DNA of 45,101 nt, from positions 72,123-117,223 of the forward strand of contig JAIFWV010000001.1 in assembly GCA_019659055.1 (NCBI GenBank). The letters run 5' to 3'. Of this stretch, positions 9,433 through 45,101 are shown piece by piece; within the stretch, counting starts at the first letter, position 1, and each line of letters opens with the position of its first letter. The notes below the pieces were generated by a model. That model was not told the DNA's origin. It worked only from the letters and a program-made list of their open reading frames with translations, and ran no database searches. This DNA comes from Candidatus Doudnabacteria bacterium. GTDB lineage: Bacteria > Patescibacteriota > Doudnabacteria > UBA920 > O2-02-FULL-48-8. A program made the translations under genes and the position numbers.

Positions 9433-9693
9433 TTATTTCAGAGAAATTATTTGATACCCAAATTTTTCGACATCGTCCGGAGGGAACAAATTGACTTCTT
9501 TAGTTTTAAGAACGTACCCGACTTCTCTGGAAACCTCACGTCCCGTATACGCTTGAAGTTCTGGGTCCCATTCTTTAAGCACCAAAACATCGCCAGGATT
9601 ACATTCCCAGTCAGCAAGCCTCAGTTCAAATGTTTTAGAACCATTTTTTACCTGTTCAAAATATTCAGGCAAAATTTTCTTCTCAATTTTCAT
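9433..9693 (-). CDS. DUF3850/ASCH (PUA-like) domain protein
   Basis: KILPEYFEQVKNGSKTFELR..D...GDVLVLKEW...YTGR; start reassigned to 9693 because the longer ORF overlaps tRNA-Gly. Confidence 0.85.
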   Translation of the reverse strand: MKIEKKILPEYFEQVKNGSKTFELRLADWECNPGDVLVLKEWDPELQAYTGREVSREVGYVLKTKEVNLFPPDDVEKFGYQIISLK

Positions 9694-9703
9694 ATATTTT
9701 TCC

Positions 9704-9777
9704 TGGAGCAGGTAGAGGGAATCGAACCCTCGCTCTATCCTTGGGAAGGACATGTACTGCCATTATACGATACCTGC
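9704..9777 (-). tRNA. tRNA-Gly(CCC)
   Basis: GCAGGTATCGTATAATGGCAGTACATGTCCTTCCCAAGGATAGAGCGAGGGTTCGATTCCCTCTACCTGCTCCA. Confidence 0.96.
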
Positions 9778-19290: not shown

Positions 19291-20537
19291 TTTTTGATTT
19301 CCGTTACGAATTGCTCAGCACGGTCGCGGTAATTTTTAAACATATCAAAGCTGGCCGCGGCCGGTGAGAGCAGGACCACATCGCCTGCAGTCGCAATGCT
19401 TTTTGCCTGGGAAATAATCTCTTGCATATTTTTGGCGCCGGTAAAAATTTTCCCAGAATAGCCTTCCATATTTTTGAGAATTTTAGGAGCTTCTTCCCCG
19501 ACCGCAACGACGGCTTTCAGATTTCCTGCTGACTTTATAGTCTTGCCTAGTTTTTTGTATTCCAAGCCCTTGCTCGAGCCACCGACAATCAAAATTACAG
19601 GCTCGGCAAATGCCTGGATGGCAGCAATCGTCGAATCCTCGTTGGTACTTATCGAATCCTCCACATAAGTAATCCCGTCTTTCTCCAAAACTTTCTGCAG
19701 ACGGTGCGGGAGGCCTGGAAAGTTCTTCACCGCTTGGCGAATCAGGTCTTCTGGAACCTTCAGAATCTTCCCCACAGCAGATGCGGCCGCAATATTTTCA
19801 AGGTTATGCTTTCCGAGTATTATGTATTCATAATCTTCGACATCTTTCGGATCAAAAATAATTTTCTGGCCGTGGCCTACATTCTGTACATCGGACGGAA
19901 GTTCATGGGAAATGACTGCAAAATCCTCTGCGGTTTGGTGGGCTATGATCTGCAGTTTGGCATCAAAGTATTCACTGATCGATCCGTGCGCTGATTTATT
20001 GTAGGTACCTGATTCATCCAAATGATCCGCGGTAATATTGAGCACGACGGCTATGTGCGGACTGCGATGGAGATCCTGGAGCTGGAAGCTTGAAAGTTCC
20101 AAGACCACCAAATCCTCGGGTTTAATAGAATCAATAAACTCAAACGGGTCGGTGCCGATATTGCCCGCCAGCCAAACTTTGTAGCCGCCAGCTTCGAGAA
20201 TTTTGGCCGCGAGCGTGGAGGTTGTCCCCTTGCCCTTGGTGCCAGTGACACCAATGATTTTGGCCGGACACAGATCAAAAAAGAGTTTGGTCTGGCTTGA
20301 GATTTCAACGCCTTTGCTTTGAGCCTGCTGAATGGCCGGCGCCATATACGGCAACCCCGGGGTCCGAAACAAAATGTCGAAGCGGTCCAGCTGTCCCACC
20401 AGGTCGGAATTCCGCTTCCAATCAGCGATCGTTTCATAGACAATTCCGTGCGCATCAAAAAAGGATGCCAACTTTTGATTGTTGACTCCCATGCCGACGA
20501 TCGCAATCTTTTTGTCTTGAAGGTGTTCTAGGTTCAT
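19287..20537 (-). CDS. murD: UDP-MurNAc-L-Ala:D-Glu ligase
   Basis: GVTGTKGKGTT, GNIG, ELSSFQL, LPHRL, LLSPAAASFDMFKNY. Confidence 0.97.
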   Translation of the reverse strand: MNLEHLQDKKIAIVGMGVNNQKLASFFDAHGIVYETIADWKRNSDLVGQLDRFDILFRTPGLPYMAPAIQQAQSKGVEISSQTKLFFDLCPAKIIGVTGTKGKGTTSTLAAKILEAGGYKVWLAGNIGTDPFEFIDSIKPEDLVVLELSSFQLQDLHRSPHIAVVLNITADHLDESGTYNKSAHGSISEYFDAKLQIIAHQTAEDFAVISHELPSDVQNVGHGQKIIFDPKDVEDYEYIILGKHNLENIAAASAVGKILKVPEDLIRQAVKNFPGLPHRLQKVLEKDGITYVEDSISTNEDSTIAAIQAFAEPVILIVGGSSKGLEYKKLGKTIKSAGNLKAVVAVGEEAPKILKNMEGYSGKIFTGAKNMQEIISQAKSIATAGDVVLLSPAAASFDMFKNYRDRAEQFVTEIKK

Positions 20538-22096
20538 GTTCTGCGCAATATCGTGCCAAAGTGCCCTGAACCTCGGCCGTCATAATAAGCAATTTGTCCG
20601 TTGACGATCACTGAATCGATCCCAAACGACAGCTGGAACGGGTGTTCGTAAGTGGCCTGATCCGAAACTTTCTTGGGATCAATAACCACGAGGTCGGCTA
20701 TGAGGTTTTTCGCAATGGTCCCGCGGTCTGTGATCTTAATTAGGCGCGCCGGTTCGGAAGTAATTTTGCGGATCGCTTCTTCCCAGGAAATTTTTTTCTT
20801 TTCTCTGACCCATGACAAAAATCTGGGCATGGCCCCGTAACAGCGCGGGTGGACCAAATTTTCAGTCTGAGCAGTGTAGCCGGCGCCATCGGTGGCGATC
20901 ATCCCAAGCGGGGAGGCCAAAAGCTCATCCACGAGCTCATCCGACAAATTTCTGTCGAATGCCACGGCTTGAGTTTTGCAGGCGGTTAGAATATTAAGCA
21001 GGGCTTCCGCGCCGGATACTCCAGAATTGGCGGCGATGTCGGCCACAGTCTTGCCAATAAAGCCGGAATTGTTTTCCGATGTGGCGACAGTGATGTTTTT
21101 GTAATCGTATTCCTGGGTTTTGAGATATTCGAGGATTTTTTTACGCTCGACTGGTGAAGCCATCATTCTCAAAATTTCCTGCCGGCCGCCCTCATAAGCC
21201 CACTTAGGCAGATAAGTGTAGAGCACGGACCAGGAAGTGTGGTACGGATAAACGTCAAACGAAATATCAAGGCCTGAGTGGTAAGCGTCCTCGATTTTTT
21301 TGAGAGCTTGTTTTCCCAAGTGCCAATTTTTTTGGTTTTGGATCTTGAAATGAGAAATTTTCAAAGCCACGCCGGCTTTTTTGGCAATTTCGATGACTTC
21401 GTCGAGACTCTCCAAGACATGCGCGCCTTCTGAGCGCAGATGTACGGAAAGATAAGCCTCACGGGTTTTGAGATTTTTCGAGAGCTCCAAGAGCTCTTCG
21501 GCGGTGGAATTAACTTCATGCGCATAGACTAAGCCCAAAGACAAGCCAAGTGCGCCTTGCTCCAGAGACTGCGACAAAAGTTTATCCATAATCTGAATTT
21601 CATCCGATGTCGCCTTCCGGACCTGATCGCCCAGCAGACCGCGCCGCAGAGTGGCATGCCCGACTAAACTGCCGACATTGACCGCAGTTTTCTGGTGCAT
21701 GCTCCGCAGGAATTCGGCAAAGGTTGACCAGTTGATATTGATGCCGGCGAGATTATGCCATTTCTGAATTGTCTTGATAGCTTCTGTACTTGTAAGCGGT
21801 GCCAGAGATGATCCGCAGTTACCGACTATTATAGACGTGATTCCCTGTGAGATAAGACTCAATTGATCCGGCTCATCAAAAAGCGTCCAGTAAGCGTCTG
21901 AGTGGTTCTGGATATCTATAAATCCGGGTACGATGAACTTGCCGCCCGTATCAATTACGACTTTGGCTTTGGACTCTGGGATGTTTTCAGCGATTTCCGA
22001 AATCTTGCCGCCGGTAATTGCGACGTCGGATTTAAACTTTGGCTTTTTGCCCGTGCCATCGATGATTTCCCCATTTTTTAAGAGAATATCAAACAT
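20534..22096 (-). CDS. N-acyl-D-amino acid deacylase family amidohydrolase
   Basis: PGFIDIQNHSD, QGITSIIVGNCG, HLRSE, ISHFK, HPRCYGAMPRFL, ADLVV. Confidence 0.88.
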   Translation of the reverse strand: MFDILLKNGEIIDGTGKKPKFKSDVAITGGKISEIAENIPESKAKVVIDTGGKFIVPGFIDIQNHSDAYWTLFDEPDQLSLISQGITSIIVGNCGSSLAPLTSTEAIKTIQKWHNLAGININWSTFAEFLRSMHQKTAVNVGSLVGHATLRRGLLGDQVRKATSDEIQIMDKLLSQSLEQGALGLSLGLVYAHEVNSTAEELLELSKNLKTREAYLSVHLRSEGAHVLESLDEVIEIAKKAGVALKISHFKIQNQKNWHLGKQALKKIEDAYHSGLDISFDVYPYHTSWSVLYTYLPKWAYEGGRQEILRMMASPVERKKILEYLKTQEYDYKNITVATSENNSGFIGKTVADIAANSGVSGAEALLNILTACKTQAVAFDRNLSDELVDELLASPLGMIATDGAGYTAQTENLVHPRCYGAMPRFLSWVREKKKISWEEAIRKITSEPARLIKITDRGTIAKNLIADLVVIDPKKVSDQATYEHPFQLSFGIDSVIVNGQIAYYDGRGSGHFGTILRRT

Positions 22097-27801: not shown

Positions 27802-28173
27802 TTATTGAACTAGCTCTTGGTATTGGCCGGGCGCTTGTTTCAATTGATCCACAGTCAGGCCAGTGCTTGAGAACATAAGATTCGTGGTCAGAAGCAGTAA
27901 TGCGATCGAGGCTACGGTAAGCCCCAGACAGACGTAAGCCGCAGTTTTGCCGTCGGATTTGCCTGAGGTAAAGAATTTTACAGCATAAAGCAACCCAAAC
28001 GGCGGCACTGCCAAGGAGACCATATATCCCCAGCGTTTTTCCTTGGAGGTAAGCATCTGGTCATTGGCCCCGCTGAGCGCGGCCATGGCTAAACTCGCGA
28101 CATCAATTTCTTTGTTGGCGCTGTGCAGATCTTTGTATTGTTTTATTTGTTTCGCAAGCTCGTCCTCATTCAT
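27802..28173 (-). CDS. Hypothetical membrane protein
   Basis: SLAVPPFGLLYAV hairpin and a C-terminal TM; GGTATAAT just upstream. Confidence 0.75.
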   Translation of the reverse strand: MNEDELAKQIKQYKDLHSANKEIDVASLAMAALSGANDQMLTSKEKRWGYMVSLAVPPFGLLYAVKFFTSGKSDGKTAAYVCLGLTVASIALLLLTTNLMFSSTGLTVDQLKQAPGQYQELVQ

Positions 28174-32185: not shown

Positions 32186-32764
32186 CTAGTGGAGCTTCTC
32201 TCCACGAGCAAGCATTTCAATCAGGTCATTAATACGCTTTTTTCGGGTTTCAATTTTCTTGGCAGTCGTGATGCGCCAGATGATGGCGTAGGAATTAGCC
32301 TTGCTTAAATTTTGAAAAAAGGCTTTTGCTTTTTTGTTCTTCTTCAAGGCTGTAAGGAAATCCTCCGGCGCTACCGCGCTTTTGGGGGATGCATAGGCAT
32401 TGTCCCACCGGCCGTCTTCCTTGGCGGCCGCAATTACCGCAAGTCCTGCGGGCATCATTTTCTTCTCAAGGATAAGCTTCGTGACTTTGTCGCGGTTGAT
32501 CTGCGACCACATGCTCTTGGATTTGCGCGGAGTAAACTTCTGAATGTACGATTTCTCATCGAACCGGTTGACCAGGCTGTCGATCCAGCCAAAACACAAA
32601 ACTTCGTCCAAAGCTTCCAGATAATTCATCATTTTGACGCCTGAGGCTTTCTTATAAAACCGAATCCAAATCCCCTGGGACTTAGCGTGATTGATCCTAA
32701 GCCATTTGCGGAATTCTTGCGACGTTTTAAATGCTAAAATTGGGTTTCCGTCTTTTGCTTTCAT
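32186..32764 (-). CDS. YdeI/OmpD-associated (bacteriocin-protection) family protein
   Basis: ALDEVLCFGWIDS, FTPRKSKSMWS, PEDFLTAL, AKKIETRKKRI. Confidence 0.9.
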   Translation of the reverse strand: MKAKDGNPILAFKTSQEFRKWLRINHAKSQGIWIRFYKKASGVKMMNYLEALDEVLCFGWIDSLVNRFDEKSYIQKFTPRKSKSMWSQINRDKVTKLILEKKMMPAGLAVIAAAKEDGRWDNAYASPKSAVAPEDFLTALKKNKKAKAFFQNLSKANSYAIIWRITTAKKIETRKKRINDLIEMLARGEKLH

Positions 32765-32806: not shown

Positions 32807-32881
32807 TGGGGCGTCGCCAAGCGGTAAGGCAGGGGCCTTTGAAGCCCCCATTCGTAGGTTCGAATCCTACCGCCCCAGCCA
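32807..32881 (+). tRNA. tRNA-Gln(TTG)
   Basis: TGGGGCGTCGCCAAGCGGTAAGGCAGGGGCCTTTGAAGCCCCCATTCGTAGGTTCGAATCCTACCGCCCCAGCCA. Confidence 0.96.
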
Positions 32882-33054: not shown

Positions 33055-33798
33055 ATGCAATTCAGTCCAACTAATAACATTGTTAAACTCTGCCTTCAGG
33101 GCATGGGCATGGAAGACAAAGGTAAGCCTGAAGAAGCAAGTAAATTATTTCTCCAAGCCTGGGATGAAGCCACAAACAATTCTGAAAAATTTCTCGCCGC
33201 TTTCTACATATCCCGGCATCAAAAAAATACTTCCGATAGGTTAAAGTGGCTTACAACTGCTTTACAGTTGGCATTGGAACTAAACGACCATTCGGTTGAG
33301 AGTGCTTTTCCTTCTCTGTACTCAAGCATTGCCAAATGCTATGAGGATCTAAACGATCCTCACGAGGCAAATAAGAATTATAAATTAGCAGCTTCTTTTA
33401 AAAATAAACCGACCGACACCGGTCCTTTTTATCATGGAACGAAAGCAGATTTGAAAGTGGGCGATTTGCTGACAACAAAAAATGATTCTAACTATAAATC
33501 CGACCTAAAAATGAATCATATTTATTTCACCGCGCTCGTGAATGGGGCGGGTCTTGCTGCGGCATTGGCCAAAGGTGAAGGACGTGAACGTGTCTATGTA
33601 GTCGAACCAACGGGAGACTTTGAAGATGACCCGAACGTTACCAATAAAAAATTCCCGGGCAATCAGACACGTTCATATCGCTCCGAATCGCCACTGAAAA
33701 TTGTTGGCGAAGTAGTAGATTGGGAACGGCTTATACCTGAGGAACTTCAAAAATTTCGTGACAGATTAGCCAACACCAAAGAAAATATTATAAATTAG
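33055..33798 (+). CDS. arr: NAD(+)--rifampin ADP-ribosyltransferase with N-terminal TPR-like domain
   Basis: PFYHGTKADL, SNY, HIYFT, VYVVEPTGDFEDDPNVTNKKFPGNQTRSYRS Arr signature. Confidence 0.92.
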   Translation: MQFSPTNNIVKLCLQGMGMEDKGKPEEASKLFLQAWDEATNNSEKFLAAFYISRHQKNTSDRLKWLTTALQLALELNDHSVESAFPSLYSSIAKCYEDLNDPHEANKNYKLAASFKNKPTDTGPFYHGTKADLKVGDLLTTKNDSNYKSDLKMNHIYFTALVNGAGLAAALAKGEGRERVYVVEPTGDFEDDPNVTNKKFPGNQTRSYRSESPLKIVGEVVDWERLIPEELQKFRDRLANTKENIIN

Positions 33799-33814: not shown

Positions 33815-33847
33815 AAAAAAGCGGAAGTAGATCACTTCCGCTTTTTT
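33815..33847. terminator. Bidirectional Rho-independent terminator
   Basis: AAAAAAGCGGAAGT-AGATC-ACTTCCGCTTTTTT between convergent arr and hcp. Confidence 0.9.
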
Positions 33848-33848
33848 G

Positions 33849-34499
33849 TTATACGCCCTTGTTCTCTTTGAGATCCCAACCGGCTTTAATCGGTTCACCG
33901 AGTGTGCCATCTGGCTTTTGCTGCCGGTATTCGACTTCTATTTTCCCAAAACTTAAACTGAAAGAATCCAGAGGAAGCAGGTCGCTTCCGCCAGCATTTT
34001 GTCTATAAGAGCTAACCAAGACGTCTGAGAATTTCCAGGTCAGAAATACCTGGCCCTTATCTTTGCCTGCCGAACGCACTACCATAAGTGTCGCATCCTT
34101 GATGTGTTTCCCGTTGGCCGTGGCCAAGAACAGCGCTACCGATGCCTTGTTTACTCGCATCGTGAAATTGAAATCATCCATTTGAACTTTGCCGGCACCG
34201 CTTCCACCGCCAAAGCTTGTTGACCCGGAATTATGTTCGCCAAAACTGTAAGATTCAATGTCGATTTGGTTTTCGTGTCCCGCGGTTGTAGATTCGCCGT
34301 CTATGCCATCAATCTGGAGGTAATAATCAACTGCCGAGGCGTCTGCGGACTGCACCAATAAGTCATTCAGGCCTAAGGCCTTGTTCTGTCCAGCCGGACC
34401 TGTTGCCAAACTAAATGCAAACATACCGAAGACCAAAACCAACGCTAAAACTGCCGCGATGTTTGTTTTCGCCCAATTCGTAATTTTATTCATAAGCAT
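33849..34499 (-). CDS. hcp: Type VI secretion tube protein Hcp (TssD) domain with N-terminal signal peptide/TM extension
   Basis: DYYLQIDGIDGES...HENQIDIESYSFG...GGGSGAGKV..DFNFT..VNKASVALF...G.HI..A.L...DVLVSSY...DSFSLSFGKIEVEY..QKPDG....AGWDLKEN. Confidence 0.92.
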   Translation of the reverse strand: MLMNKITNWAKTNIAAVLALVLVFGMFAFSLATGPAGQNKALGLNDLLVQSADASAVDYYLQIDGIDGESTTAGHENQIDIESYSFGEHNSGSTSFGGGSGAGKVQMDDFNFTMRVNKASVALFLATANGKHIKDATLMVVRSAGKDKGQVFLTWKFSDVLVSSYRQNAGGSDLLPLDSFSLSFGKIEVEYRQQKPDGTLGEPIKAGWDLKENKGV

Positions 34500-34539
34500 T
34501 ATGTATCTGCGTTAATTATTCTAACTTGTCGACCACAAG

Positions 34540-36120
34540 TTAGGTTTCGACTTCGCCGCCCATAATTTTGAGGGCGGATTCCATGAGATTATTATCGAGA
34601 TTGTCTTCCACGGGTTCGCCCGGCGGAGGCATCTCGTTTTCTGTTTGCGGTGATAAGGGAACAGGTTCTCCCTTCCAATCCTTCTCCACGACTGGTTTGA
34701 TCATAAGCTTCATACCGGTAACTTCTTCGATAACCTGATCGACTACGATCTTGTTTTTGCGCTGTTCAACAGCGTCCTTATGGAACTTATACGGAAACGT
34801 GATCACGAGCTCCCGGCCTTGCAGGGCCACGGCTTTGGCCAATTTCAGGCTTGGAATAAGCGAATGATTGTACTCTTTGAGTTTATCTAAGATTTTCGGC
34901 CAGGCTTCAGCAATTTTCTGCAAACCTTCAGGATTGTCATGAGAGTTTCCACTTCGATCCGACGATTGTCGGGGAGAAGTCTCGGTGTTAGTACCAAGAT
35001 CTCTCACTTCGTTCGAGATGGTACCAATAGCAACATTATCTTTAATATTTATCGCCTCAATGGCTGCCAGTTCCATAGGCAAGCTTTGGATCACGCTCCA
35101 CTTGATTTCACTACCGGCGCGCTGGAATAATTCAATAATCCGGACCAGCTTCTCAAGCGGTACCCGAGACACCAACTCCAAAAGCTTGCTTTGCATTTCC
35201 TGGGAAAACCCAAAGTCGGCACGCGCCCCGACTTTGATAATGAGAATCTTGCGCAAATACTCCAAGAAGTCTTTCTGGAATTGGATGAGGTCTTTCCCTG
35301 AATACATAAGTTTGGAAATAAAATCCACGGCTTGCTTGTTTTCGCCGGCCAGGATGAGAGACAAAAAATCATACGAGGTCTGCAGACTGGTTAGTCCGAG
35401 CACATCTTCAGCCAAAGCCACGGTGAGTTTGCCATTGGCAAAATTTAGGACTTGGTCGAGGAGAGACAATCCATCTCGGAAACTGCCGTCCGCGGCCTGC
35501 GCGATGACGATCAGAGCTTCATCTTCGGCCTCGACTTGATTATCGGCGCAGACAAACTTAAGCCTCTGGACCAGATTTTCCATAGAGGCTTTCTTGAAGT
35601 CAAACCTTTGCGTGCGCGAAACTATCGTAGCCGGGACTTTATGAATTTCGGTGGTCGCCAGAATAAAAATTGCATGCGCGGGGGGTTCTTCCAAAGTCTT
35701 AAGCAATGCATTGAAGGCCCCTTTGGAGAGCATGTGGACTTCGTCAATGATTATGACTTTGTACTTGGCTCGGGTGGGCGCAAATTGCAGATGGTCTATG
35801 AGCTCGCGGATGTTATCGACTCCGGTATGCGAGGCGGCGTCAATTTCGAGGATGTCCAAAGACGTTCCGCCCAAAAAATCCTTACAGATATCGCAGTTAT
35901 TACAAGGTTCACCCTCAGCCACCTGGAGACAATTCACAGCGCGCGCAAAAATCCTGGCGATAGTGGTTTTACCCACTCCGCGCGGACCCGTAAACAAATA
36001 CGCGTGGCCGGCGCGATTGTGGGCCACAGCGTTTCTGAGGGTAGTTTTGACGTGATCCTGGCTCACGACATCCGAGAAACTCACGGGACGATATTTGCGA
36101 TATAAGACGAGATTAGACAT
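34540..36120 (-). CDS. dnaX: DNA polymerase III subunit gamma/tau
   Basis: LYRKYRP, GPRGVGKTT, zinc Cys cluster, EIDAAS, DEVHML, FNALLKTLEEPP. Confidence 0.98.
   Translation of the reverse strand: MSNLVLYRKYRPVSFSDVVSQDHVKTTLRNAVAHNRAGHAYLFTGPRGVGKTTIARIFARAVNCLQVAEGEPCNNCDICKDFLGGTSLDILEIDAASHTGVDNIRELIDHLQFAPTRAKYKVIIIDEVHMLSKGAFNALLKTLEEPPAHAIFILATTEIHKVPATIVSRTQRFDFKKASMENLVQRLKFVCADNQVEAEDEALIVIAQAADGSFRDGLSLLDQVLNFANGKLTVALAEDVLGLTSLQTSYDFLSLILAGENKQAVDFISKLMYSGKDLIQFQKDFLEYLRKILIIKVGARADFGFSQEMQSKLLELVSRVPLEKLVRIIELFQRAGSEIKWSVIQSLPMELAAIEAINIKDNVAIGTISNEVRDLGTNTETSPRQSSDRSGNSHDNPEGLQKIAEAWPKILDKLKEYNHSLIPSLKLAKAVALQGRELVITFPYKFHKDAVEQRKNKIVVDQVIEEVTGMKLMIKPVVEKDWKGEPVPLSPQTENEMPPPGEPVEDNLDNNLMESALKIMGGEVET
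34949..35022. repeat. Two-arm palindromic element, copy 3, in frame inside dnaX
   Basis: CCACTTCGATCCGACGATTGTCGGGGAGAAGTCTCGGTGTTAGTACCAAGATCTCTCACTTCGTTCGAGATGGT; reverse orientation relative to copies 1 and 2. Confidence 0.88.
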
Positions 36121-36129
36121 AAAGAGGTA

Positions 36130-36480
36130 ACCATTTCGAGTGAAGCGAGAAATCTCGCGATTAAATTATTGATTTATATAAGTCTTGCCATTTAGGGTTG
36201 ATTGAGCTTATCAAGGTTGTTTTTTTAAATCTGCCCCATTTCTTTATTTGTTTTTCTCTGGCCAAAAGAGCATCATAGTCTTCCCCAGATTCATAATAAA
36301 CCAATTTCTGGCATTTATATTTCTTCGTGAACCCTTCAGCGAAACCATTTCGGTGCTCCCAAACTCGCTTAACGAGATCCGAGGTAAAGCCTATGTAAAT
36401 CGCCCCACTTTCGCTGCTCATTATATAAACGTAAAACATATGTTTTAACACCGAGATCTCTCACTTTCGTTCGAGATGGT
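36130..36480 (-). mobile_element. Putative autonomous element: GIY-YIG gene between two inverted hairpin arms
   Basis: Arm ACCATTTCGAGTGAAGCGAGAAATCTCG (36130-36157) and arm TTAACACCGAGATCTCTCACTTTCGTTCGAGATGGT (36445-36480); mobility is inferred. Confidence 0.65.
36161..36439 (-). CDS. Small stand-alone GIY-YIG nuclease (UPF0213-like)
   Basis: FYVYIM..IYIGFTSDLVKRVWEH..GFTKKY..LVYYE..AREKQIKKW..NPKWQDL; likely start ATG 36439. Confidence 0.92.
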   Translation of the reverse strand: MFYVYIMSSESGAIYIGFTSDLVKRVWEHRNGFAEGFTKKYKCQKLVYYESGEDYDALLAREKQIKKWGRFKKTTLISSINPKWQDLYKSII

Positions 36481-38463: not shown

Positions 38464-40989
38464 TTATAGACTTCTTTCTACACTCGCCGGGCCAGTTTGA
38501 GCGGGGCTCCCGAGCTTGGTGCGTTCCAAAATGTCGGTTTCTACATCTCTGCGGGCTCGGCCAAAACTTAGACGCGACATATTGCGGACTATTTTGGCTG
38601 TGTCGAGATTTGCTCCTGGCGGTTTGGGGTAGGTCTGCATGTTAAACGGCCTGGAGGCTGTGCCGTTGATCATGAGTTTGACGTAGGCATTGAACCGCTC
38701 GATATTGATAACGTCGAACTCGTTGAACACCGGGGCAAATTCTTTGGCCATGATTTCGGCGTCCTCGACACCAATACGGAAGCTGACCATAGTCCCGGCG
38801 TTACCGAAGACGGCATCGCGCATGCGGGTATCCAGGCCCGACGAGCCTTCTTTCTCCTGGGCCAGCTGGGAAATAAACTGGTGCGCCATAATCAAATTGA
38901 GACGGTATTTGCGGGCCTCAGAGAGTATAGTCGCAAAGCTATCGGTGACGAAGTTCTGGAATTCATCGACATAAAGATAAAAATCCTTGCGGCTTTCTTC
39001 CGGGATATCGGACCGCGACAATGCCGCCATCTGAAGTTTGGATACAATTATCAGCCCCAAAAGTTTAGCATTGACCTCACCGGTTTTACCTTTGGATAAA
39101 TTGATGAGGAGGATTTTACCTTCGTCCATAACCTGCCGAAAATCAAACGACGAATGTGACTGCCCAATGATATTACGCATCATTTCGTTTTCCACAAACC
39201 TTCCGACTTTGGAAACCAGGTAGCCCAACATTTCGGATTTGTGGAAGTCCGAAGTTTTGGCCATTTCTTTTTCCCAGAACGACCGGACGATCGGATCTGC
39301 GACTTTGGAGACTTTGTATTTCTGAAAATCGGTGTCGGTAAACATGCGCGGAATATCCGCAAGCGTGCCCGGGTACTGCTTGTCCTCCATGAGCGTAAGC
39401 ATGACGTTGCGCATATTGTGCTCAAACATTGGGCCAATCATCTCCGGCGGAAACAGCTTCATAAAGATCGCAATCATTTCCTGCACGGCGAAATCTTTTT
39501 GCGAATCGTCTTTGACCTCGAGCATGTTGAGTCCCAAAGGGCGCTCCATATCGAACGGTTCAAAGAGGATGACATCTTGGGCACGCTCTTTGGGGATATA
39601 TTGCAAAACGTCTTCCACGAAATCCCCGTGCGGATCCACGATACAGACGCCCTCACCATTGCGGATGTCCTGGATGGCCATGTTCTTCATAAGTTCAGTC
39701 TTACCCGTACCTGTGCGGCCGATAATGTACTGATGTCGGCGGCGATCGTCGCGCTCGATAAAGATTTTGGTATCCTGGCCGCGATAATGACTTTCGCCGA
39801 GCAAGAGGCCGGCTGCTGGGGCATTCTGCGGCGGCGGGGCTTTTTTGGCATTGAGCCATTTGATATTTGGGGTTTCGGTAAATCTTGTCGGCAAGTGCCA
39901 AAGTGAAGCCAACTCTTCGGTATTGAGAATCTGTTTGGTGTTGCGGAACACCCGATAGACATAGTCGGTAATCACGCGTTTGGGCTTGCGCTTGAGCACG
40001 CGGAAGCCGTTGAACGGCGGCATCGTATATTGCATAAACGACGAGACGATGTTTTTGAGGTGGATATCGGCTGTGCCAGGATCGCTTGCAGCACTCACTA
40101 CGCGCAGGTTAAACTTGTATCCGGCGCGCGAGGCTTTCTCTTCAAACTTTTTCACGATCTCCTGTTGCATAGGAGTCAAATTTATAGGTTTGTCGAAGCC
40201 CGATGGATCAAATTTGTTTGGGTCTTTCTTGGACCCCATAGCTTCGTTGATCAGCTCGCCGGTAAATTTGCCCGTGCTTTTGAGAATTTTGGTCCCGATC
40301 GAAGCCGTCACGTCCGAAGGATTTTTCCCCTGCTGAATTTCCAATGCCAAATGCCGCGGTTTCTCCTGCCAGCTGTTGCTCGCCGGGGAAATAAGCAACT
40401 GGATAGCCGCGCCTTCATCATCGCCAAGTTTAGATAAACTATTCGTGAGCGCGTTGAGCGGATCGGTCTCCATGACTTTATAAGTCCGGACCGGGTAGAT
40501 ATAAGATTTCTGTAAACTCAGTTCTGCGGCGGCGGTCGCGGAACCTTTGTGGAAAATGTTGTAGGATTTTATCTGCTCGATCTGAGCTTTGGGGTACTGG
40601 GCATGAAGCTGTTTTTCTATAAGCGGCTGAAGTTTGCGGGGGACGTTGATGTAAAACGAAATTCTTTTGCCGATAGCAGCAATCTCAAACGAAATATAAT
40701 CATTGATATCCAAAAAATGCTGGATATTGAGCTTTTGATCGATATGCGCGATCGTGGAAAAAAATTGCTCAGCAATGGCAATAATGTCTTTCTCTTCTTT
40801 GGCCGCTTCCTGATTTGGGTCCGTGTTTTCTTTGGGGATAGTGACTTCCAAAAACACGGAATCCAAAAGTCTCGGGCCCCAAGTGTTTTTACGCAAATAA
40901 TCAAACAGGAAAAAATACAACATCAATCCAACCAGCCCGAGTACGGCCAGCAGGATTACCCAAAAAAATAATTGTGTTGCTCCTGTCAT
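38464..40989 (-). CDS. VirD4/TraD-like (type IV coupling/HerA-related) membrane-anchored ATPase
   Basis: N-terminal TM, DRRRHQYIIGRTGTGKT, VDPHGD, LYVDEFQNF, LSEARKYRLNLIMAHQ, AVFGNAGT. Confidence 0.9.
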   Translation of the reverse strand: MTGATQLFFWVILLAVLGLVGLMLYFFLFDYLRKNTWGPRLLDSVFLEVTIPKENTDPNQEAAKEEKDIIAIAEQFFSTIAHIDQKLNIQHFLDINDYISFEIAAIGKRISFYINVPRKLQPLIEKQLHAQYPKAQIEQIKSYNIFHKGSATAAAELSLQKSYIYPVRTYKVMETDPLNALTNSLSKLGDDEGAAIQLLISPASNSWQEKPRHLALEIQQGKNPSDVTASIGTKILKSTGKFTGELINEAMGSKKDPNKFDPSGFDKPINLTPMQQEIVKKFEEKASRAGYKFNLRVVSAASDPGTADIHLKNIVSSFMQYTMPPFNGFRVLKRKPKRVITDYVYRVFRNTKQILNTEELASLWHLPTRFTETPNIKWLNAKKAPPPQNAPAAGLLLGESHYRGQDTKIFIERDDRRRHQYIIGRTGTGKTELMKNMAIQDIRNGEGVCIVDPHGDFVEDVLQYIPKERAQDVILFEPFDMERPLGLNMLEVKDDSQKDFAVQEMIAIFMKLFPPEMIGPMFEHNMRNVMLTLMEDKQYPGTLADIPRMFTDTDFQKYKVSKVADPIVRSFWEKEMAKTSDFHKSEMLGYLVSKVGRFVENEMMRNIIGQSHSSFDFRQVMDEGKILLINLSKGKTGEVNAKLLGLIIVSKLQMAALSRSDIPEESRKDFYLYVDEFQNFVTDSFATILSEARKYRLNLIMAHQFISQLAQEKEGSSGLDTRMRDAVFGNAGTMVSFRIGVEDAEIMAKEFAPVFNEFDVINIERFNAYVKLMINGTASRPFNMQTYPKPPGANLDTAKIVRNMSRLSFGRARRDVETDILERTKLGSPAQTGPASVERSL

Positions 40990-41035
40990 TATTTTGTTTT
41001 TCTTCTACTTCTGTTTCGATTTTACGTCCGACTAC

Positions 41036-41377
41036 TTACTCGCCAGGAATTATCCTTTGCTGTTCTTCGATGGCACTATAGGGATCATCCGTGCCGGCAT
41101 CGATTTCCTTGATCCACGAGGTCATGACAAGTTTTTGATCTTCCTCGCTGAGTGCTTTGGTTTCTAGAGCACCTTCTGCTGAGGTCGCTTTCTGGGTGCG
41201 CTCAAGATTTTGGGCATCCACCATACTCCCGCTTTCGCTTAGATTCACTTTCTTAGAGGTATAAGTCGTACTACTGCGGCCTTCGCCGTCTTGCTGGAGT
41301 TGCTCCAAAAACCCTTCCGTTTCCGGAGAAGGTTTTATTGCGGGCTCTTGTTCTGGTATGTTTAATCGTTCTGACAT
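41036..41377 (-). CDS. Hypothetical acidic protein
   Basis: 113-aa ORF in the operon orientation; no motif recognised. Confidence 0.65.
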   Translation of the reverse strand: MSERLNIPEQEPAIKPSPETEGFLEQLQQDGEGRSSTTYTSKKVNLSESGSMVDAQNLERTQKATSAEGALETKALSEEDQKLVMTSWIKEIDAGTDDPYSAIEEQQRIIPGE

Positions 41378-41417
41378 GACTCGTAATTATACATTAATTT
41401 CTCGGTTTGAGCAATGC

Positions 41418-44400
41418 TTAAGCCCCGGCTTTTTTCTCCATATCTACGGTGAGACCCTTATGCCCAATCCTGACTGCCGTTATCTTTTGGCCATATTTCT
41501 GCTCTAGAACCTTTTTTATCAGATCAGGAATTTCATTTACGCGAGATTGGGCGAAGGCTCTGACCAGAATGTTGGCGTCTATTTGGCGCCGAATCATGAC
41601 TATTTTGTTGTCAGTGCTCTTGAATTCACCGCTAAACCCCACATCGTAACCTTGGGCATTTATCCGGCCTTCAATCCCGATCGATGCGGGATTTTGCTTC
41701 AAGTTCAGCTCTTTGACTGTAACATTGGAGTTTTTACCGAGCTCTTCCATAATCACCATTTTCAGATCATCCACGCTGAGGAGCTTGCTTTCCGTCTGTT
41801 CCTTATCTTCCCGGCGCTCTTTCTTTGTCCCGAGCTTGGCGTTTTCGATTCTGTTGACCTGAATTTTTCCGCCTGCCAATTCTTTCCAATCATCTTTTTT
41901 GAATCCCAAGGTTTGCATTATTCCGGCGAATTCCCGCTTGGCCGACCCATTGCTCGGATTGATTTTTTTGAATTCGTTGTAAATTGTGGTGAGTTGGTCT
42001 TCAATTTCTTGTTTCTCCGGTGCGCCATACTTTTCCATGCCCCGGATCCGATGTTTTAGTCGCCGTTCAACTAATTTCAGAGTCTCGCGGACTTTATTTG
42101 CTTCCGCTTCTCTTTCGGGATCGATAGGTATTTCGGCAGCAGACGGGCCTTCATTGACAATTTCGGCAGGCCTCGTCAATTCAACGTTGCCTGCGGGCTC
42201 TTCTACTGAGTCGGACGTGCTCCGCCTAACAGCTCTCTCCTTCCGCATTTCTTCTATCGCGGCGTTCTGCTTTCTCTCTTTATAATCACCAATCAAATCC
42301 TTTGCTTCTCCGATTGCCGTAGTCAACATAGGTTCTCCAGGAGGTGCGCCTCCGGTTCTTACCCTCGCGGTGACTTGACCCACACTTGAAAGCCTTGCTT
42401 TGCGTCTATCATCTTTTATTTTATAAATAGGTTTGATTTTATAATCATCCAGGGCTTTTTTCACGTTCTTTATACTCATAATTTCGACTGCGCCAGAAGG
42501 GCTTATTTTCCAATCATCTTTCTTGAAGCCTAACCAGTGCATCAATCGGCCTAAGAATTTTTCTCCCTGCTCTTCACCAATCAAAGGCTTGATCATGTGT
42601 CTATACTTTCCTGATAGCAGGGTCTCGAGTTGTCTGGTATTTGATTCGTTTAAAGTCTCGTATGGTTTTATCTGCTGCAGAAAATCATCAATTGATTTAA
42701 ATTTGATTGATTCGTTGTGAAAATCAGCGTAAGGGTCGATACCCCTGATCATTGCATCCAAGTACCGACGTGGACTAGAATCTGATCTCGTGGCTATGGT
42801 GCTTATGGTTTTGACATTAGGCTCGATGTTATCACCTTTCCTTTTGCCTCTGAAAACAGAGATCATTTCGCCGATATACATGTCTTCACCAACTTTAAGC
42901 GGACTATACCCTCCTATTTGAGCATAAACTTCGGCCGTAAAAGAAGTGTTCCAGCCTCCTGTAACAACCCTATTCCAGACGAAATTATTAGGGACGTCCT
43001 TGGGCCGGAATTTCTTATCACGCATTAGGACTTCCCAAAAATCATCCATTCTGCGGTTTAAGAAAAACATATCATTCTTGGCCATTACTTCCGGATATCT
43101 ATCCTGCTTGCCGCGTAAAGCGTCTAATTCGGGATTTTTGTCATATTTATTCATAAGGCGAACAACAGTTTCCGGATCAACTTCGAGCAAGTCTGCATCT
43201 TCAGATTCCATGTATAATTGTCCAGTGGGATTTTTCCTTTCTTGAGAGCGGAGCAAAATTAGATCTGCTAAATATTTCCGAGCTAAACCGACTCCAGCGG
43301 ATTCTCTAGGAAATTCTTTATCGATAACGTTTATCTGGTACTCTGGATGCTCATCTTTAAATTTCTTAATCACATCCACTGAATTATCAGCCGGAGCTCC
43401 CTGTGGCCTATTAACAATAATATCTATTTCATATATCCTAGGGTCTAATTTCTTACCATTACTTTCAATCTGTTTAGTGTATTGATCCAATAAACGTTCT
43501 AAATTTGCAGCCTCGTTATAAGCCGGAATCATTATTGCAACTCTAGTCTGATCGCTCATCGGCCGCATCGAGTCTTTCAATTGCCTTAACTCGTCGACAT
43601 AAGTTTTGGGCAGCTTGTCCAAATAATGTTTGATCCTTTCTCTTTCTCTAGATACATCTCTCGTCTTCTCAGGTGGCTGAGGTTCTATGCCTGCGTTCCT
43701 AAGCACTTCCTGGTAATTCTCCGGACGTCCCAAGCCATAGTACCTACCTAAGGGCAACGGCCCATTAGGGGTCTTCTCCAATGCAAATCTCGGCCAAAAT
43801 GGGAATGGGGTAATCCAATCGGGATTCTGGGGCGGGCGGACATCGATCACTGGAATTTTGTGATCAATAGAAGTGCCGCCAAGAATTTCATAATTATGTC
43901 CTTGCGTAGTATTCAGCACATGACCGTCGAAGCGTTCTTCCATAAATCGAAAAGGAATACTCCCATCGTGCAGTTTGGCTTCGGAATCAAACAGACCCCA
44001 TGTCGCTTTAGGCAGTGGGAGTTTGTAGCCATCGACGAGCGCTTCATTCGACATCGCACTCAATCCCAATTTATTGGCTTCCTCAGTCGGGATAATCACC
44101 GCCTGGAAATGCTTGGCATATTCTTCTGGCTTGTCACCCACACTGATCAAAGTCTTGGCTAAATCTACAAGTTTGTGGTCAATTGAACCATCCGGGCTTT
44201 TACCAAAATCAGGATCGCTCAAGGCACGCTTGGCATTTTCCGCCATGTTATGGGCCAAAGCTTTGATATTCATGAATACCATGCCACTGCCTGGATCCCG
44301 TTCCAAATACTGCATCTGCTGTTTGCCTTCAAACTCTATCGGCTTACCGAACCACTTGCTAAATACCTTTCCTGCTTCATCATGCCAATGGACGCGCGCA

Positions 44401-45101
44401 TACTTACCAAGATCCGGCAAAAGCTGTTTCAATTCATCGACGGATGCAATATGATTTTGCGAGCCAAGTTCAATATCGCCCTGCGCAGAAGACTCACTAA
44501 ATCCAAAACTGTGTTCTTTGAGATCCTGTAAAGCCTCTGGCGTAAACTTACCATGATCAACTTCCAGATGACTTGCCGAGATGTTGCCATCATTATCAAT
44601 AATATCTACGAAGTGCTTACCATGTTCGAGGTGGTCGGCAATAGTATATCCTGGCGGCAGATTTACCCGGCCACCATCAGGTAAAACATTGGCAGCCAAA
44701 GCGCCGGAATAAGTTTCGTAGGGGCTTTCACCGCGAAGTTTATGCCATGCTCCTTCGATAAGAGATCCATGCTTCTGAGAATCAAAGAATGGAATCCCGT
44801 GCCCGCGGAGCTGGTCGATACCAAACTGGGCCACGGCTCCCCCAGCGATGCCCATAACGCCTCCGAGAATCCCGGCTTTAATTTTCTCCTTCTTTTCGAA
44901 TTCATCGAAGCGTTCGTTCGCGCCGTTTATACCTTTGATAACTTCGAGTCTTTGTTCCTGGATAAGGTTTTCAAGATCCGCATCGGTCATACCGTCCAGT
45001 CCCCGCGCATTTTGCAGTGCCTCTCGCAGTGTATTTAAACCAAACCGCCTGGTTCCCTTTTCGCCGCCGCCTTTACCGGAAACAGAGATCAGATTTTTCC
45101 T
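41418..45101 (-). CDS. Large multidomain protein with a GT2 (GT-A) glycosyltransferase domain; 5' end lies outside the window
   Basis: Frame stays open from 44990 to the window end; VAIMIPAYNE, GVGLARK, EDAD (DxD), IGGY, GEDM; Gly-rich hydrophobic segment GILGGVMGIAGGAVAQFG. Confidence 0.8.
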   Translation of the reverse strand, partial: RKNLISVSGKGGGEKGTRRFGLNTLREALQNARGLDGMTDADLENLIQEQRLEVIKGINGANERFDEFEKKEKIKAGILGGVMGIAGGAVAQFGIDQLRGHGIPFFDSQKHGSLIEGAWHKLRGESPYETYSGALAANVLPDGGRVNLPPGYTIADHLEHGKHFVDIIDNDGNISASHLEVDHGKFTPEALQDLKEHSFGFSESSAQGDIELGSQNHIASVDELKQLLPDLGKYARVHWHDEAGKVFSKWFGKPIEFEGKQQMQYLERDPGSGMVFMNIKALAHNMAENAKRALSDPDFGKSPDGSIDHKLVDLAKTLISVGDKPEEYAKHFQAVIIPTEEANKLGLSAMSNEALVDGYKLPLPKATWGLFDSEAKLHDGSIPFRFMEERFDGHVLNTTQGHNYEILGGTSIDHKIPVIDVRPPQNPDWITPFPFWPRFALEKTPNGPLPLGRYYGLGRPENYQEVLRNAGIEPQPPEKTRDVSRERERIKHYLDKLPKTYVDELRQLKDSMRPMSDQTRVAIMIPAYNEAANLERLLDQYTKQIESNGKKLDPRIYEIDIIVNRPQGAPADNSVDVIKKFKDEHPEYQINVIDKEFPRESAGVGLARKYLADLILLRSQERKNPTGQLYMESEDADLLEVDPETVVRLMNKYDKNPELDALRGKQDRYPEVMAKNDMFFLNRRMDDFWEVLMRDKKFRPKDVPNNFVWNRVVTGGWNTSFTAEVYAQIGGYSPLKVGEDMYIGEMISVFRGKRKGDNIEPNVKTISTIATRSDSSPRRYLDAMIRGIDPYADFHNESIKFKSIDDFLQQIKPYETLNESNTRQLETLLSGKYRHMIKPLIGEEQGEKFLGRLMHWLGFKKDDWKISPSGAVEIMSIKNVKKALDDYKIKPIYKIKDDRRKARLSSVGQVTARVRTGGAPPGEPMLTTAIGEAKDLIGDYKERKQNAAIEEMRKERAVRRSTSDSVEEPAGNVELTRPAEIVNEGPSAAEIPIDPEREAEANKVRETLKLVERRLKHRIRGMEKYGAPEKQEIEDQLTTIYNEFKKINPSNGSAKREFAGIMQTLGFKKDDWKELAGGKIQVNRIENAKLGTKKERREDKEQTESKLLSVDDLKMVIMEELGKNSNVTVKELNLKQNPASIGIEGRINAQGYDVGFSGEFKSTDNKIVMIRRQIDANILVRAFAQSRVNEIPDLIKKVLEQKYGQKITAVRIGHKGLTVDMEKKAGA

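Follow-up and report, generated by a model that had tools for sequence, protein, structure and literature searches.

An Hcp-family protein with a probable export leader in a Doudnabacteria genome where no type VI secretion genes were found

Hcp is known from textbooks as a protein without a signal that occurs solely as the tube of a type VI secretion system (T6SS). In the present study, we analysed 45,101 nucleotides of a Candidatus Doudnabacteria genome (assembly GCA_019659055.1, contig JAIFWV010000001.1, positions 72,123 to 117,223; the whole stretch is called the window here), in which a gene of 216 codons at 33849..34499 on the minus strand encodes an Hcp domain behind a hydrophobic N-terminal leader. 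The question that this locus raises is why a cell with no recognisable T6SS keeps an Hcp, and whether the leader carries it out of the cytoplasm. We consider the export of a T6SS-independent protein of Hcp fold to be the probable answer, as judged from sequence and structure models; this judgement does not extend to the function of the exported protein, for which a binding cage or a decoy is our guess. In the literature searched, from which subscription journals were mostly absent, no description of a signal-bearing Hcp was found, and PMC3482391 mentions Hcp three times, in connection with T6SS toxins.

The Hcp domain and the search for its machine

The whole gene, consisting of leader, linker, Hcp domain and stop, was delimited from the list of open reading frames (ORFs) and the Pfam T6SS_HCP match. 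The first-pass annotation, which was made from the letters of the DNA, had proposed a complete Hcp/TssD domain, and the profile and fold searches bear this out. T6SS_HCP (PF05638) matched residues 60-191 over its full length (profile positions 1-129 of 129) with 121.7 bits (cut-off 23.5) and an E-value of 3.2e-35, while the NCBIfam model TIGR03344 (TssD) gave 42.3 bits, under its cut-off of 58.9. The best solved structure by sequence was Hcp1 of Pseudomonas aeruginosa (1Y12; phmmer, E 2.2e-30, residues 53-213). The domain is 55-62% identical to many canonical Hcps of 160-162 residues, so chance is not an issue for the family assignment. It begins in the alignment where canonical Hcps begin after their Met, and K62Q and P121V are its only departures from the residues conserved in the family, with the glycine-rich loop and the core positions intact. 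Codons 54-216 and the stop (33849..34340, minus strand) were assigned to the Hcp beta-barrel domain from Pfam, the PDB sequence match, Foldseek and the alignment.

The AlphaFold2 model, which was built on an alignment of 94 rows and has a mean pLDDT of 85, consists of one continuous helix at residues 3-32, a low-confidence linker at 33-56 that is irregular except for a short helix (44-47), and a barrel at 57-216, most of which has a pLDDT over 90. Foldseek placed this barrel on 1y12_C with a TM-score of 0.92 (by target) and an rmsd of 1.8, and its top matches were all Hcp structures (TM by target 0.85-0.97). By both sequence and model, the window protein is a true and complete member of the Hcp family. 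We infer that it would form six-membered rings, from its likeness in sequence and fold to Hcps that do so; a four-copy assembly prediction of residues 54-216 scored 0.12 against a mark of 0.42, which we count neither for nor against a ring. In 4KSR, 4KSS, 6AP1 and 7O42 the Hcp1 match is the C-terminal end of a fusion chain, where Hcp1 presumably serves as a hexamerising scaffold (the title of 4KSR names a hexamer), so an N-terminal tail need not block the ring.

The gene lies 40 bp downstream of dnaX, and the first-pass annotation had noted no T6SS gene around it; a Pfam scan of 43 ORFs agreed, as none of the T6SS families was found among them. The search was also extended to the whole genome, which has 900,221 bases in 39 contigs (the window lies in one of 117 kb) and is 97% complete by marker genes. 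LepA from the window shows 71-90% identity to records labelled Candidatus Saccharibacteria, Candidatus Doudnabacteria and Patescibacteria group. The genome contains one single Hcp match. The eight partner families gave no match in it at E<=1, namely TssC (PF05943), TssB (PF05591), VgrG/GPD (PF05954), PAAR (PF05488), gp25/TssE (PF04965), TssF (PF05947), TssK (PF05936) and the phage sheath (PF04984). The idea of an Hcp repurposed for export, for which the earlier reader had suggested this genome-wide search, was not refuted by it.

The leader and the readings that it allows

The leader and linker take up residues 1-53, and the basic N-terminus, the hydrophobic stretch and the A-D-A just before the domain, all described by the earlier reader, can be read directly from the sequence. 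The n-region (residues 1-13) carries K5 and K11 and is followed by a hydrophobic stretch of 19 residues (14-32) that ends in S-L-A (30-32). From this reading and the AlphaFold2 helix, codons 1-32 (34404..34499, minus strand) would encode a Sec-type signal peptide or a signal anchor, and codons 33-53 (34341..34403, minus strand), from their low pLDDT and the junction counts given below, a flexible linker with a terminal A-D-A junction motif. The two lysines, the core and S-L-A fit the rule of signal peptidase I by eye, the core being long. The protein has no cysteine and therefore no lipobox, so a lipoprotein signal for signal peptidase II is not present. The A-x-A site that the earlier reader saw before the domain calls for an amendment. 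A-D-A (residues 51-53) is directly before the domain and 21 residues past the hydrophobic stretch, and the usual cut of signal peptidase I would be expected at S-L-A instead; A-D-A may thus not be the primary peptidase site, but it belongs to a junction motif conserved across the class of leader-bearing Hcps.

The leader was found to recur among relatives. A word-indexed search gave 2,999 matches, including Hcps of 160-162 residues labelled Bryobacteraceae, Pyrinomonadaceae or Verrucomicrobiae, and hydrophobic leaders were present in 5 of the 120 close homologues listed (P0002, P0005, P0013, P0017 and P0018). P0002, the closest homologue among the matches listed, is 66% identical overall and has most of residues 3-25 and of the linker in common with the window protein. 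In a sample of 401 Patescibacteria genomes, six matched the Pfam Hcp family, five of them over the cut-off including the window genome, and in the other four of these the Hcp also has a hydrophobic N-terminal leader; these four score far lower against Pfam, and the two that were compared are 28% and 36% identical to the window protein. Leader forms were also seen in 5 of 84 named loci (two labelled Saccharibacteria, two Nitrososphaera and one Chloroflexi), with seven of the 84 (L032, L048, L051, L071, L073, L094 and L098) left out of the counts, L073 being canonical by eye. A phmmer search of 1.84 billion cluster representatives returned 9,671 matches, and 77 of the best 150 are of at most 300 residues: 44 with a leader, 23 that start at the domain (P0217, placed in this class, has in fact a leader), 4 with a non-hydrophobic extension and 6 without the motif, the share of 44 in 77 being biased upward because the query included the leader. 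The leader is thus no local peculiarity but conserved among homologues, and the repurposing idea withstood this comparison too. The link to an episymbiont lifestyle drawn by the earlier reader proved too narrow, since Nitrososphaera- and Chloroflexi-labelled genomes have leader forms as well. A nanotube and a part in host contact or uptake, also proposed by that reader, are conjectures on which the present analysis bears neither way.

TssC, a sheath gene, served to judge whether leader-bearing Hcps are accompanied by a T6SS. It was found in none of nine genomes whose Hcp has a leader (four of Patescibacteria, two each of Saccharibacteria and Nitrososphaera, and one of Chloroflexi), in contrast to three of three double-membrane genomes in which Hcp is leaderless (Pyrinomonadaceae, Acidobacteriota and Novosphingobium); how complete the named genomes are is not given. 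Separately, leaderless and canonical-looking Hcps were seen at L033, L045, L080, L092 and L095, in five genomes labelled Actinomycetes, Solirubrobacteraceae or Limnocylindria (G426, G427, G430, G431 and G428, respectively), and TssC was found in none of the five; they may be orphan cytoplasmic Hcps of single-membrane phyla, or mis-binned contigs.

The junction between leader and domain provides further evidence. When leader and leaderless forms were aligned, the last leader residue fell on the canonical Met1, and a strict A-x-A ends at this position in 17 of 50 leader forms, as compared with 9 at one neighbouring offset and 0-4 at the others. The small-residue rule at -1 and -3 is satisfied there in 30 of the 50. 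Several relatives have their signal peptide directly against the domain, and elsewhere the linker has 4 to 104 residues. A cut at the junction would give the same N-terminus as that of a canonical Hcp after removal of its Met. Exported proteins of many bacteria avoid unpaired cysteines. The leaderless domains have on average 1.66 cysteines (at least one in 53 of 56), against 0.64 in the leader-bearing domains (none in 29 of 55). By the criterion used, conservation of 80% or more in leaderless forms and a drop of 35 points or more in leader forms, a single column separates the groups. It is a cysteine in 91% of leaderless and 38% of leader forms, and the window protein has T127 there. For the Saccharibacteria pair L053 and L079, pN/pS was 0.14 in the leader and 0.19 in the domain; thus, in that pair, the leader is translated and under purifying selection. 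The Hcp core of the leader forms is still under selection as well, since 27 columns reach 85% conservation or more in leader and leaderless forms alike. Taken together, the A-x-A at the junction, the loss of cysteine and the purifying selection on the leader point to real export, as far as sequences can tell.

To see how the leader forms are related, an LG+G4 tree of 116 domain rows was made, for which only proteins above 170 residues plus every sixth protein were taken from P0002-P0120, and only those of at most 290 residues with the domain motif from P0121-P0270, six being dropped. Its resolution was poor, with stars on 7 of the 112 inner branches. Forms with and without a leader are intermingled in it with 25 changes, of which the starred branches force just one, and a single clade of all 55 leader forms was not rejected by the AU test (p 0.388). 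Tree and test are compatible with one origin of the leader as well as with several.

Other export signals were observed on Hcps as well. Twin-arginine (Tat-type) leaders are present on two representatives (P0224 and P0269), and in an Atlas cluster of 57 members Hcp is combined with a PEP-CTERM tag in 98%; another Atlas Hcp cluster is mostly Nitrososphaerota. The Tat leaders and PEP-CTERM tags hint at further T6SS-independent routes of Hcp export.

Several points weigh against export, and the upward bias of the phmmer share is one of them. The leaders were called by simple hydrophobicity and sequence rules, and the counts of leaders and cysteines come from related sequences, which are not independent events. 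No close DNA relative of the window gene, from which selection on its own leader could be judged, was found: a metagenome scan for P0002-like DNA gave 37 loci, none with a leader of the MNKITNW type, and the sole match of a search with residues 1-58 was the record of the window protein. There is no neighbour gene common to the leader-Hcp loci L053, L079, L062, L012 and L076 that would hint at a function. The T6SS was not found in a genome of 39 contigs, which is less than proof of its absence. Finally, signal peptidase I would be acting at an unusual distance from the hydrophobic stretch if it cut at A-D-A, the stretch itself is long for a cleaved signal, so that it may be an anchor, and the start codon is unmarked, as taken up below. 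As a separate observation on these loci, the two from Saccharibacteria (L053:234-7487 and L079:1136-7483) have a giant LVIVD-repeat protein of 2,100-2,400 residues directly upstream of the leader Hcp; it is the only neighbour common to any two of the loci examined, and these two genomes are close kin.

The length of the stretch leads to the first alternative, in which the signal anchor stays uncut and tethers of about 21 residues hold the Hcp rings to the outside of the cytoplasmic membrane, each ring having six helices. Such an arrangement would agree with the 19 hydrophobic residues behind two lysines, with the single continuous helix of the model, with linkers of so variable a length across the class, and with the tail tolerated by Hcp1 in the PDB fusion chains. 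Nevertheless, we regard it as unlikely, because S-L-A follows the -3/-1 rule exactly where the stretch ends, many relatives have textbook short signal peptides abutting the domain, and the conserved A-x-A junction suggests the release of a native-like N-terminus.

The start codon needs closer attention, as translation from M26 or GTG49 would leave a cytoplasmic orphan Hcp. The public gene call (P0001, 191 residues) and the Atlas record both start at M26, inside the hydrophobic stretch. The earlier reader had seen no in-frame ATG just before the domain; this is right, as there is none between codon 26 and the domain, but TTG (codon 48) and GTG (codon 49) are available in frame. A shorter cytoplasmic product is therefore conceivable, and leaderless Hcps in genomes without TssC are known from the five Actinomycetota- or Chloroflexota-labelled genomes above. 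No Shine-Dalgarno motif precedes codon 1, 3 or 26, and the 40 bp that separate the stop of dnaX from the start of Hcp (34500..34539, minus strand, from the sequence) hold neither such a motif nor a clear promoter for the gene; the motif is also missing in most of 33 start regions of window genes, so its lack says nothing here. We find a mis-set start quite improbable all the same. If translation began at M26, the N-terminus would consist of half a hydrophobic helix; P0002 conserves residues 3-25, starts at the equivalent of codon 3 and has Ile in place of GTG49; leaders are the rule among related forms; and the window protein is free of cysteine, which is commoner among the leader-bearing forms. 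On the subject of start regions, a TATAAT-like box was seen only 6-12 bases before the start codon of several window genes (for example those at 9433-9753, 27802-28173, 32186-32764 and 41036-41377), which would suit mRNAs with little or no leader.

History of the gene and its possible role

The surroundings of the gene were compared with those in related species. The block formed by a VirD4-like gene, two unknown genes, GtrA and dnaX (34540-36120, minus strand, 40 bp upstream of the Hcp gene) is conserved in gene order in four species, two from the same genus and two from the same family, and the Hcp gene consequently belongs to this contig. The stretch on the 3' side of dnaX differs in content among the three species of the genus: the Hcp gene, an Arr-like gene, tRNA-Gln and a YdeI/OmdA gene in this genome, a methyladenine glycosylase, two unknown genes and a phosphoesterase in the first relative, and a PAP2 protein and a trypsin-like peptidase in the second. 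A search of 24 other genomes of the family, the two same-genus species included, did not find the Hcp protein. The GC content and codon use of the gene are ordinary (codon score -1.197, mean -1.140, sd 0.051; sixth lowest of 41 genes). From its lack in the 24 relatives and its ordinary composition, it follows that the gene was acquired, either not very recently or from a donor of similar composition. As to its expression, a search of sequencing runs returned no RNA run and only three soil DNA runs, from one study and with small word shares.

These observations would also suit a passenger, that is, a horizontally acquired and intact gene with no role in this cell, given its patchy distribution and variable location. 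This is very improbable in our opinion, as the frame is intact and the conserved residues have been kept with the two exceptions named, the host-like composition argues against a very recent arrival, and a genome of 0.9 Mb would rarely keep dead weight. The least credible reading is that some contractile or phage-tail-like device, unrecognised so far and encoded at another place in this genome of 39 contigs, uses the protein as its tube; Hcp is homologous to phage tail tubes, but no sheath, gp25, VgrG/GPD, PAAR, TssF or TssK was found at E<=1, and a Sec leader would be unsuited to assembly in the cytoplasm.

We therefore return to export of a T6SS-independent Hcp and describe how it might proceed. 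The N-terminal helix would act as the signal by which the Sec pathway carries pre-Hcp across the single cytoplasmic membrane of the Patescibacteria cell, the positive n-region keeping the N-terminus inside. Signal peptidase I would probably cleave after S-L-A (residue 32), and processing at the A-D-A junction (residue 53) may come next, leaving a mature protein of about 163 residues with the N-terminus of a canonical Hcp. Outside the membrane, this protein would take the ordinary Hcp barrel fold and, by analogy, assemble into a six-membered ring without sheath, spike or baseplate. As a guess, the ring could serve as an envelope cage that binds a small exported partner, or as a decoy that catches the Hcp-borne toxins of the T6SS of neighbouring cells. 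In the latter case, the protein, which is 55-62% identical to the tubes of T6SS-armed neighbours, would capture tube-borne toxins that reach the envelope. Two genes of a protection type, the Arr-like gene and the YdeI/OmdA gene ('bacteriocin-protection'), share the variable stretch with the Hcp gene and fit a protective role as a weak hint. The broadest version, in which exported Hcp rings are a widespread T6SS-independent envelope module of microbes without the machine, among them candidate phyla radiation (CPR) bacteria and ammonia-oxidising archaea, and act as a decoy cage in this soil episymbiont, is a long shot.

The present results may have some practical consequences. A large set of Hcps would leave by the general export pathway in organisms without the machine, including single-membrane CPR bacteria and archaea, and if this set is real, the Hcp ring has a second life in the cell envelope. 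The use of Hcp as a T6SS marker in genome surveys would then over-call the system. A small, soluble and easily purified protein could also be a way into CPR surface biology, and a decoy against T6SS attack, if true, would be a new kind of defence.

Gene surroundings and comparison with known Hcp proteins

Downstream of the Hcp gene, a perfect hairpin of 8 bp with a loop of 5 bases and flanking runs of A and T was read directly from the sequence at 33815..33847. It looks like a two-way terminator common to the Hcp gene and the convergent Arr-like gene, and it was not among the sites listed by a separate pattern scan. The latter gene (33055-33798, plus strand) encodes an Arr-type rifampin ADP-ribosyltransferase with its domain at residues 125-223 (E 2e-46) behind a 124-residue N-terminal extension without a Pfam match, and its GC content (41%) is below that of its neighbours. 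The tRNA-Gln (32807-32881) and the YdeI/OmdA gene (32186-32764) belong to the same variable stretch. On the other side, between GtrA and dnaX, a gene for a GIY-YIG nuclease of 96 residues, with 36% GC (36161-36451, minus strand), has no counterpart at the same spot in the four relatives compared and is probably a small mobile insertion. Further upstream, at 38464-44990 (minus strand), a VirD4/TrwB-type coupling protein of 841 residues adjoins proteins of 113 and 1190 residues, both without a Pfam match; its C-terminal part is 73-86% identical in the two same-genus species. In a cluster for cell wall and division, the genes of MraY and of a MurD-like ligase flank one for a 520-residue protein of the amidohydrolase family (20534-22096, minus strand), and the cluster goes on with FtsW, a DUF4012 protein of 710 residues and MurJ.

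Among known and newly seen Hcps, the tandem forms are near the window domain in sequence but of another architecture. The chains P0121, P0123, P0125, P0128 and P0132 are each 27-44% identical to its domain and differ from it in carrying six Hcp domains in 970-2164 residues and no classical hydrophobic leader. Single chains of this length hold exactly six full domains by Pfam, and other proteins of the tandem set, which comprises these five and about 60 more phmmer representatives, have two domains behind a signal peptide (P0148, P0168 and P0159) or three domains (P0171). The AlphaFold2 model of P0125 has a pTM of 0.77, which suggests a fixed arrangement of its six domains, possibly one closed ring. 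An N-terminal motif of the L-E-x-R-x-L-L type is present in 14 of the best 150 representatives, and P0125 has a weak N-terminal match to the Pfam 'Planctomycete extracellular' motif (23.1 bits against a cut-off of 25.5), which hints at export of the six-domain chain.

The canonical Hcps of soil Acidobacteriota, Verrucomicrobiota and Gemmatimonadota (for example P0003, P0019, L011 and L023) are, apart from P0002, the nearest sequences to the window domain among the matches listed, with 55-62% identity over the whole domain. They start with M-A-x-V-D-Y-F, unlike the leader-bearing window protein. L011 has TssC-like and baseplate-like genes alongside (by eye), and TssC was found in the genomes of both L011 and L023. 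The window domain is unusually close to these canonical forms, unlike the other four leader forms of Patescibacteria.

Hcp1 of the P. aeruginosa H1-T6SS (PA0085, TssD; 1Y12) has no signal peptide; it is assembled in the cytoplasm inside the sheath and fired out by the T6SS. The window protein belongs to the same family and has the same fold, with the glycine-rich loop and the core kept. Unlike Hcp1, it carries 53 residues of leader and linker, has no cysteine and is encoded in a genome without T6SS gene matches. As far as sequence, fold and models go, it is thus a member of the Hcp family and does not qualify as a T6SS tube, because no partner genes were found in its genome and a leader precedes its domain.

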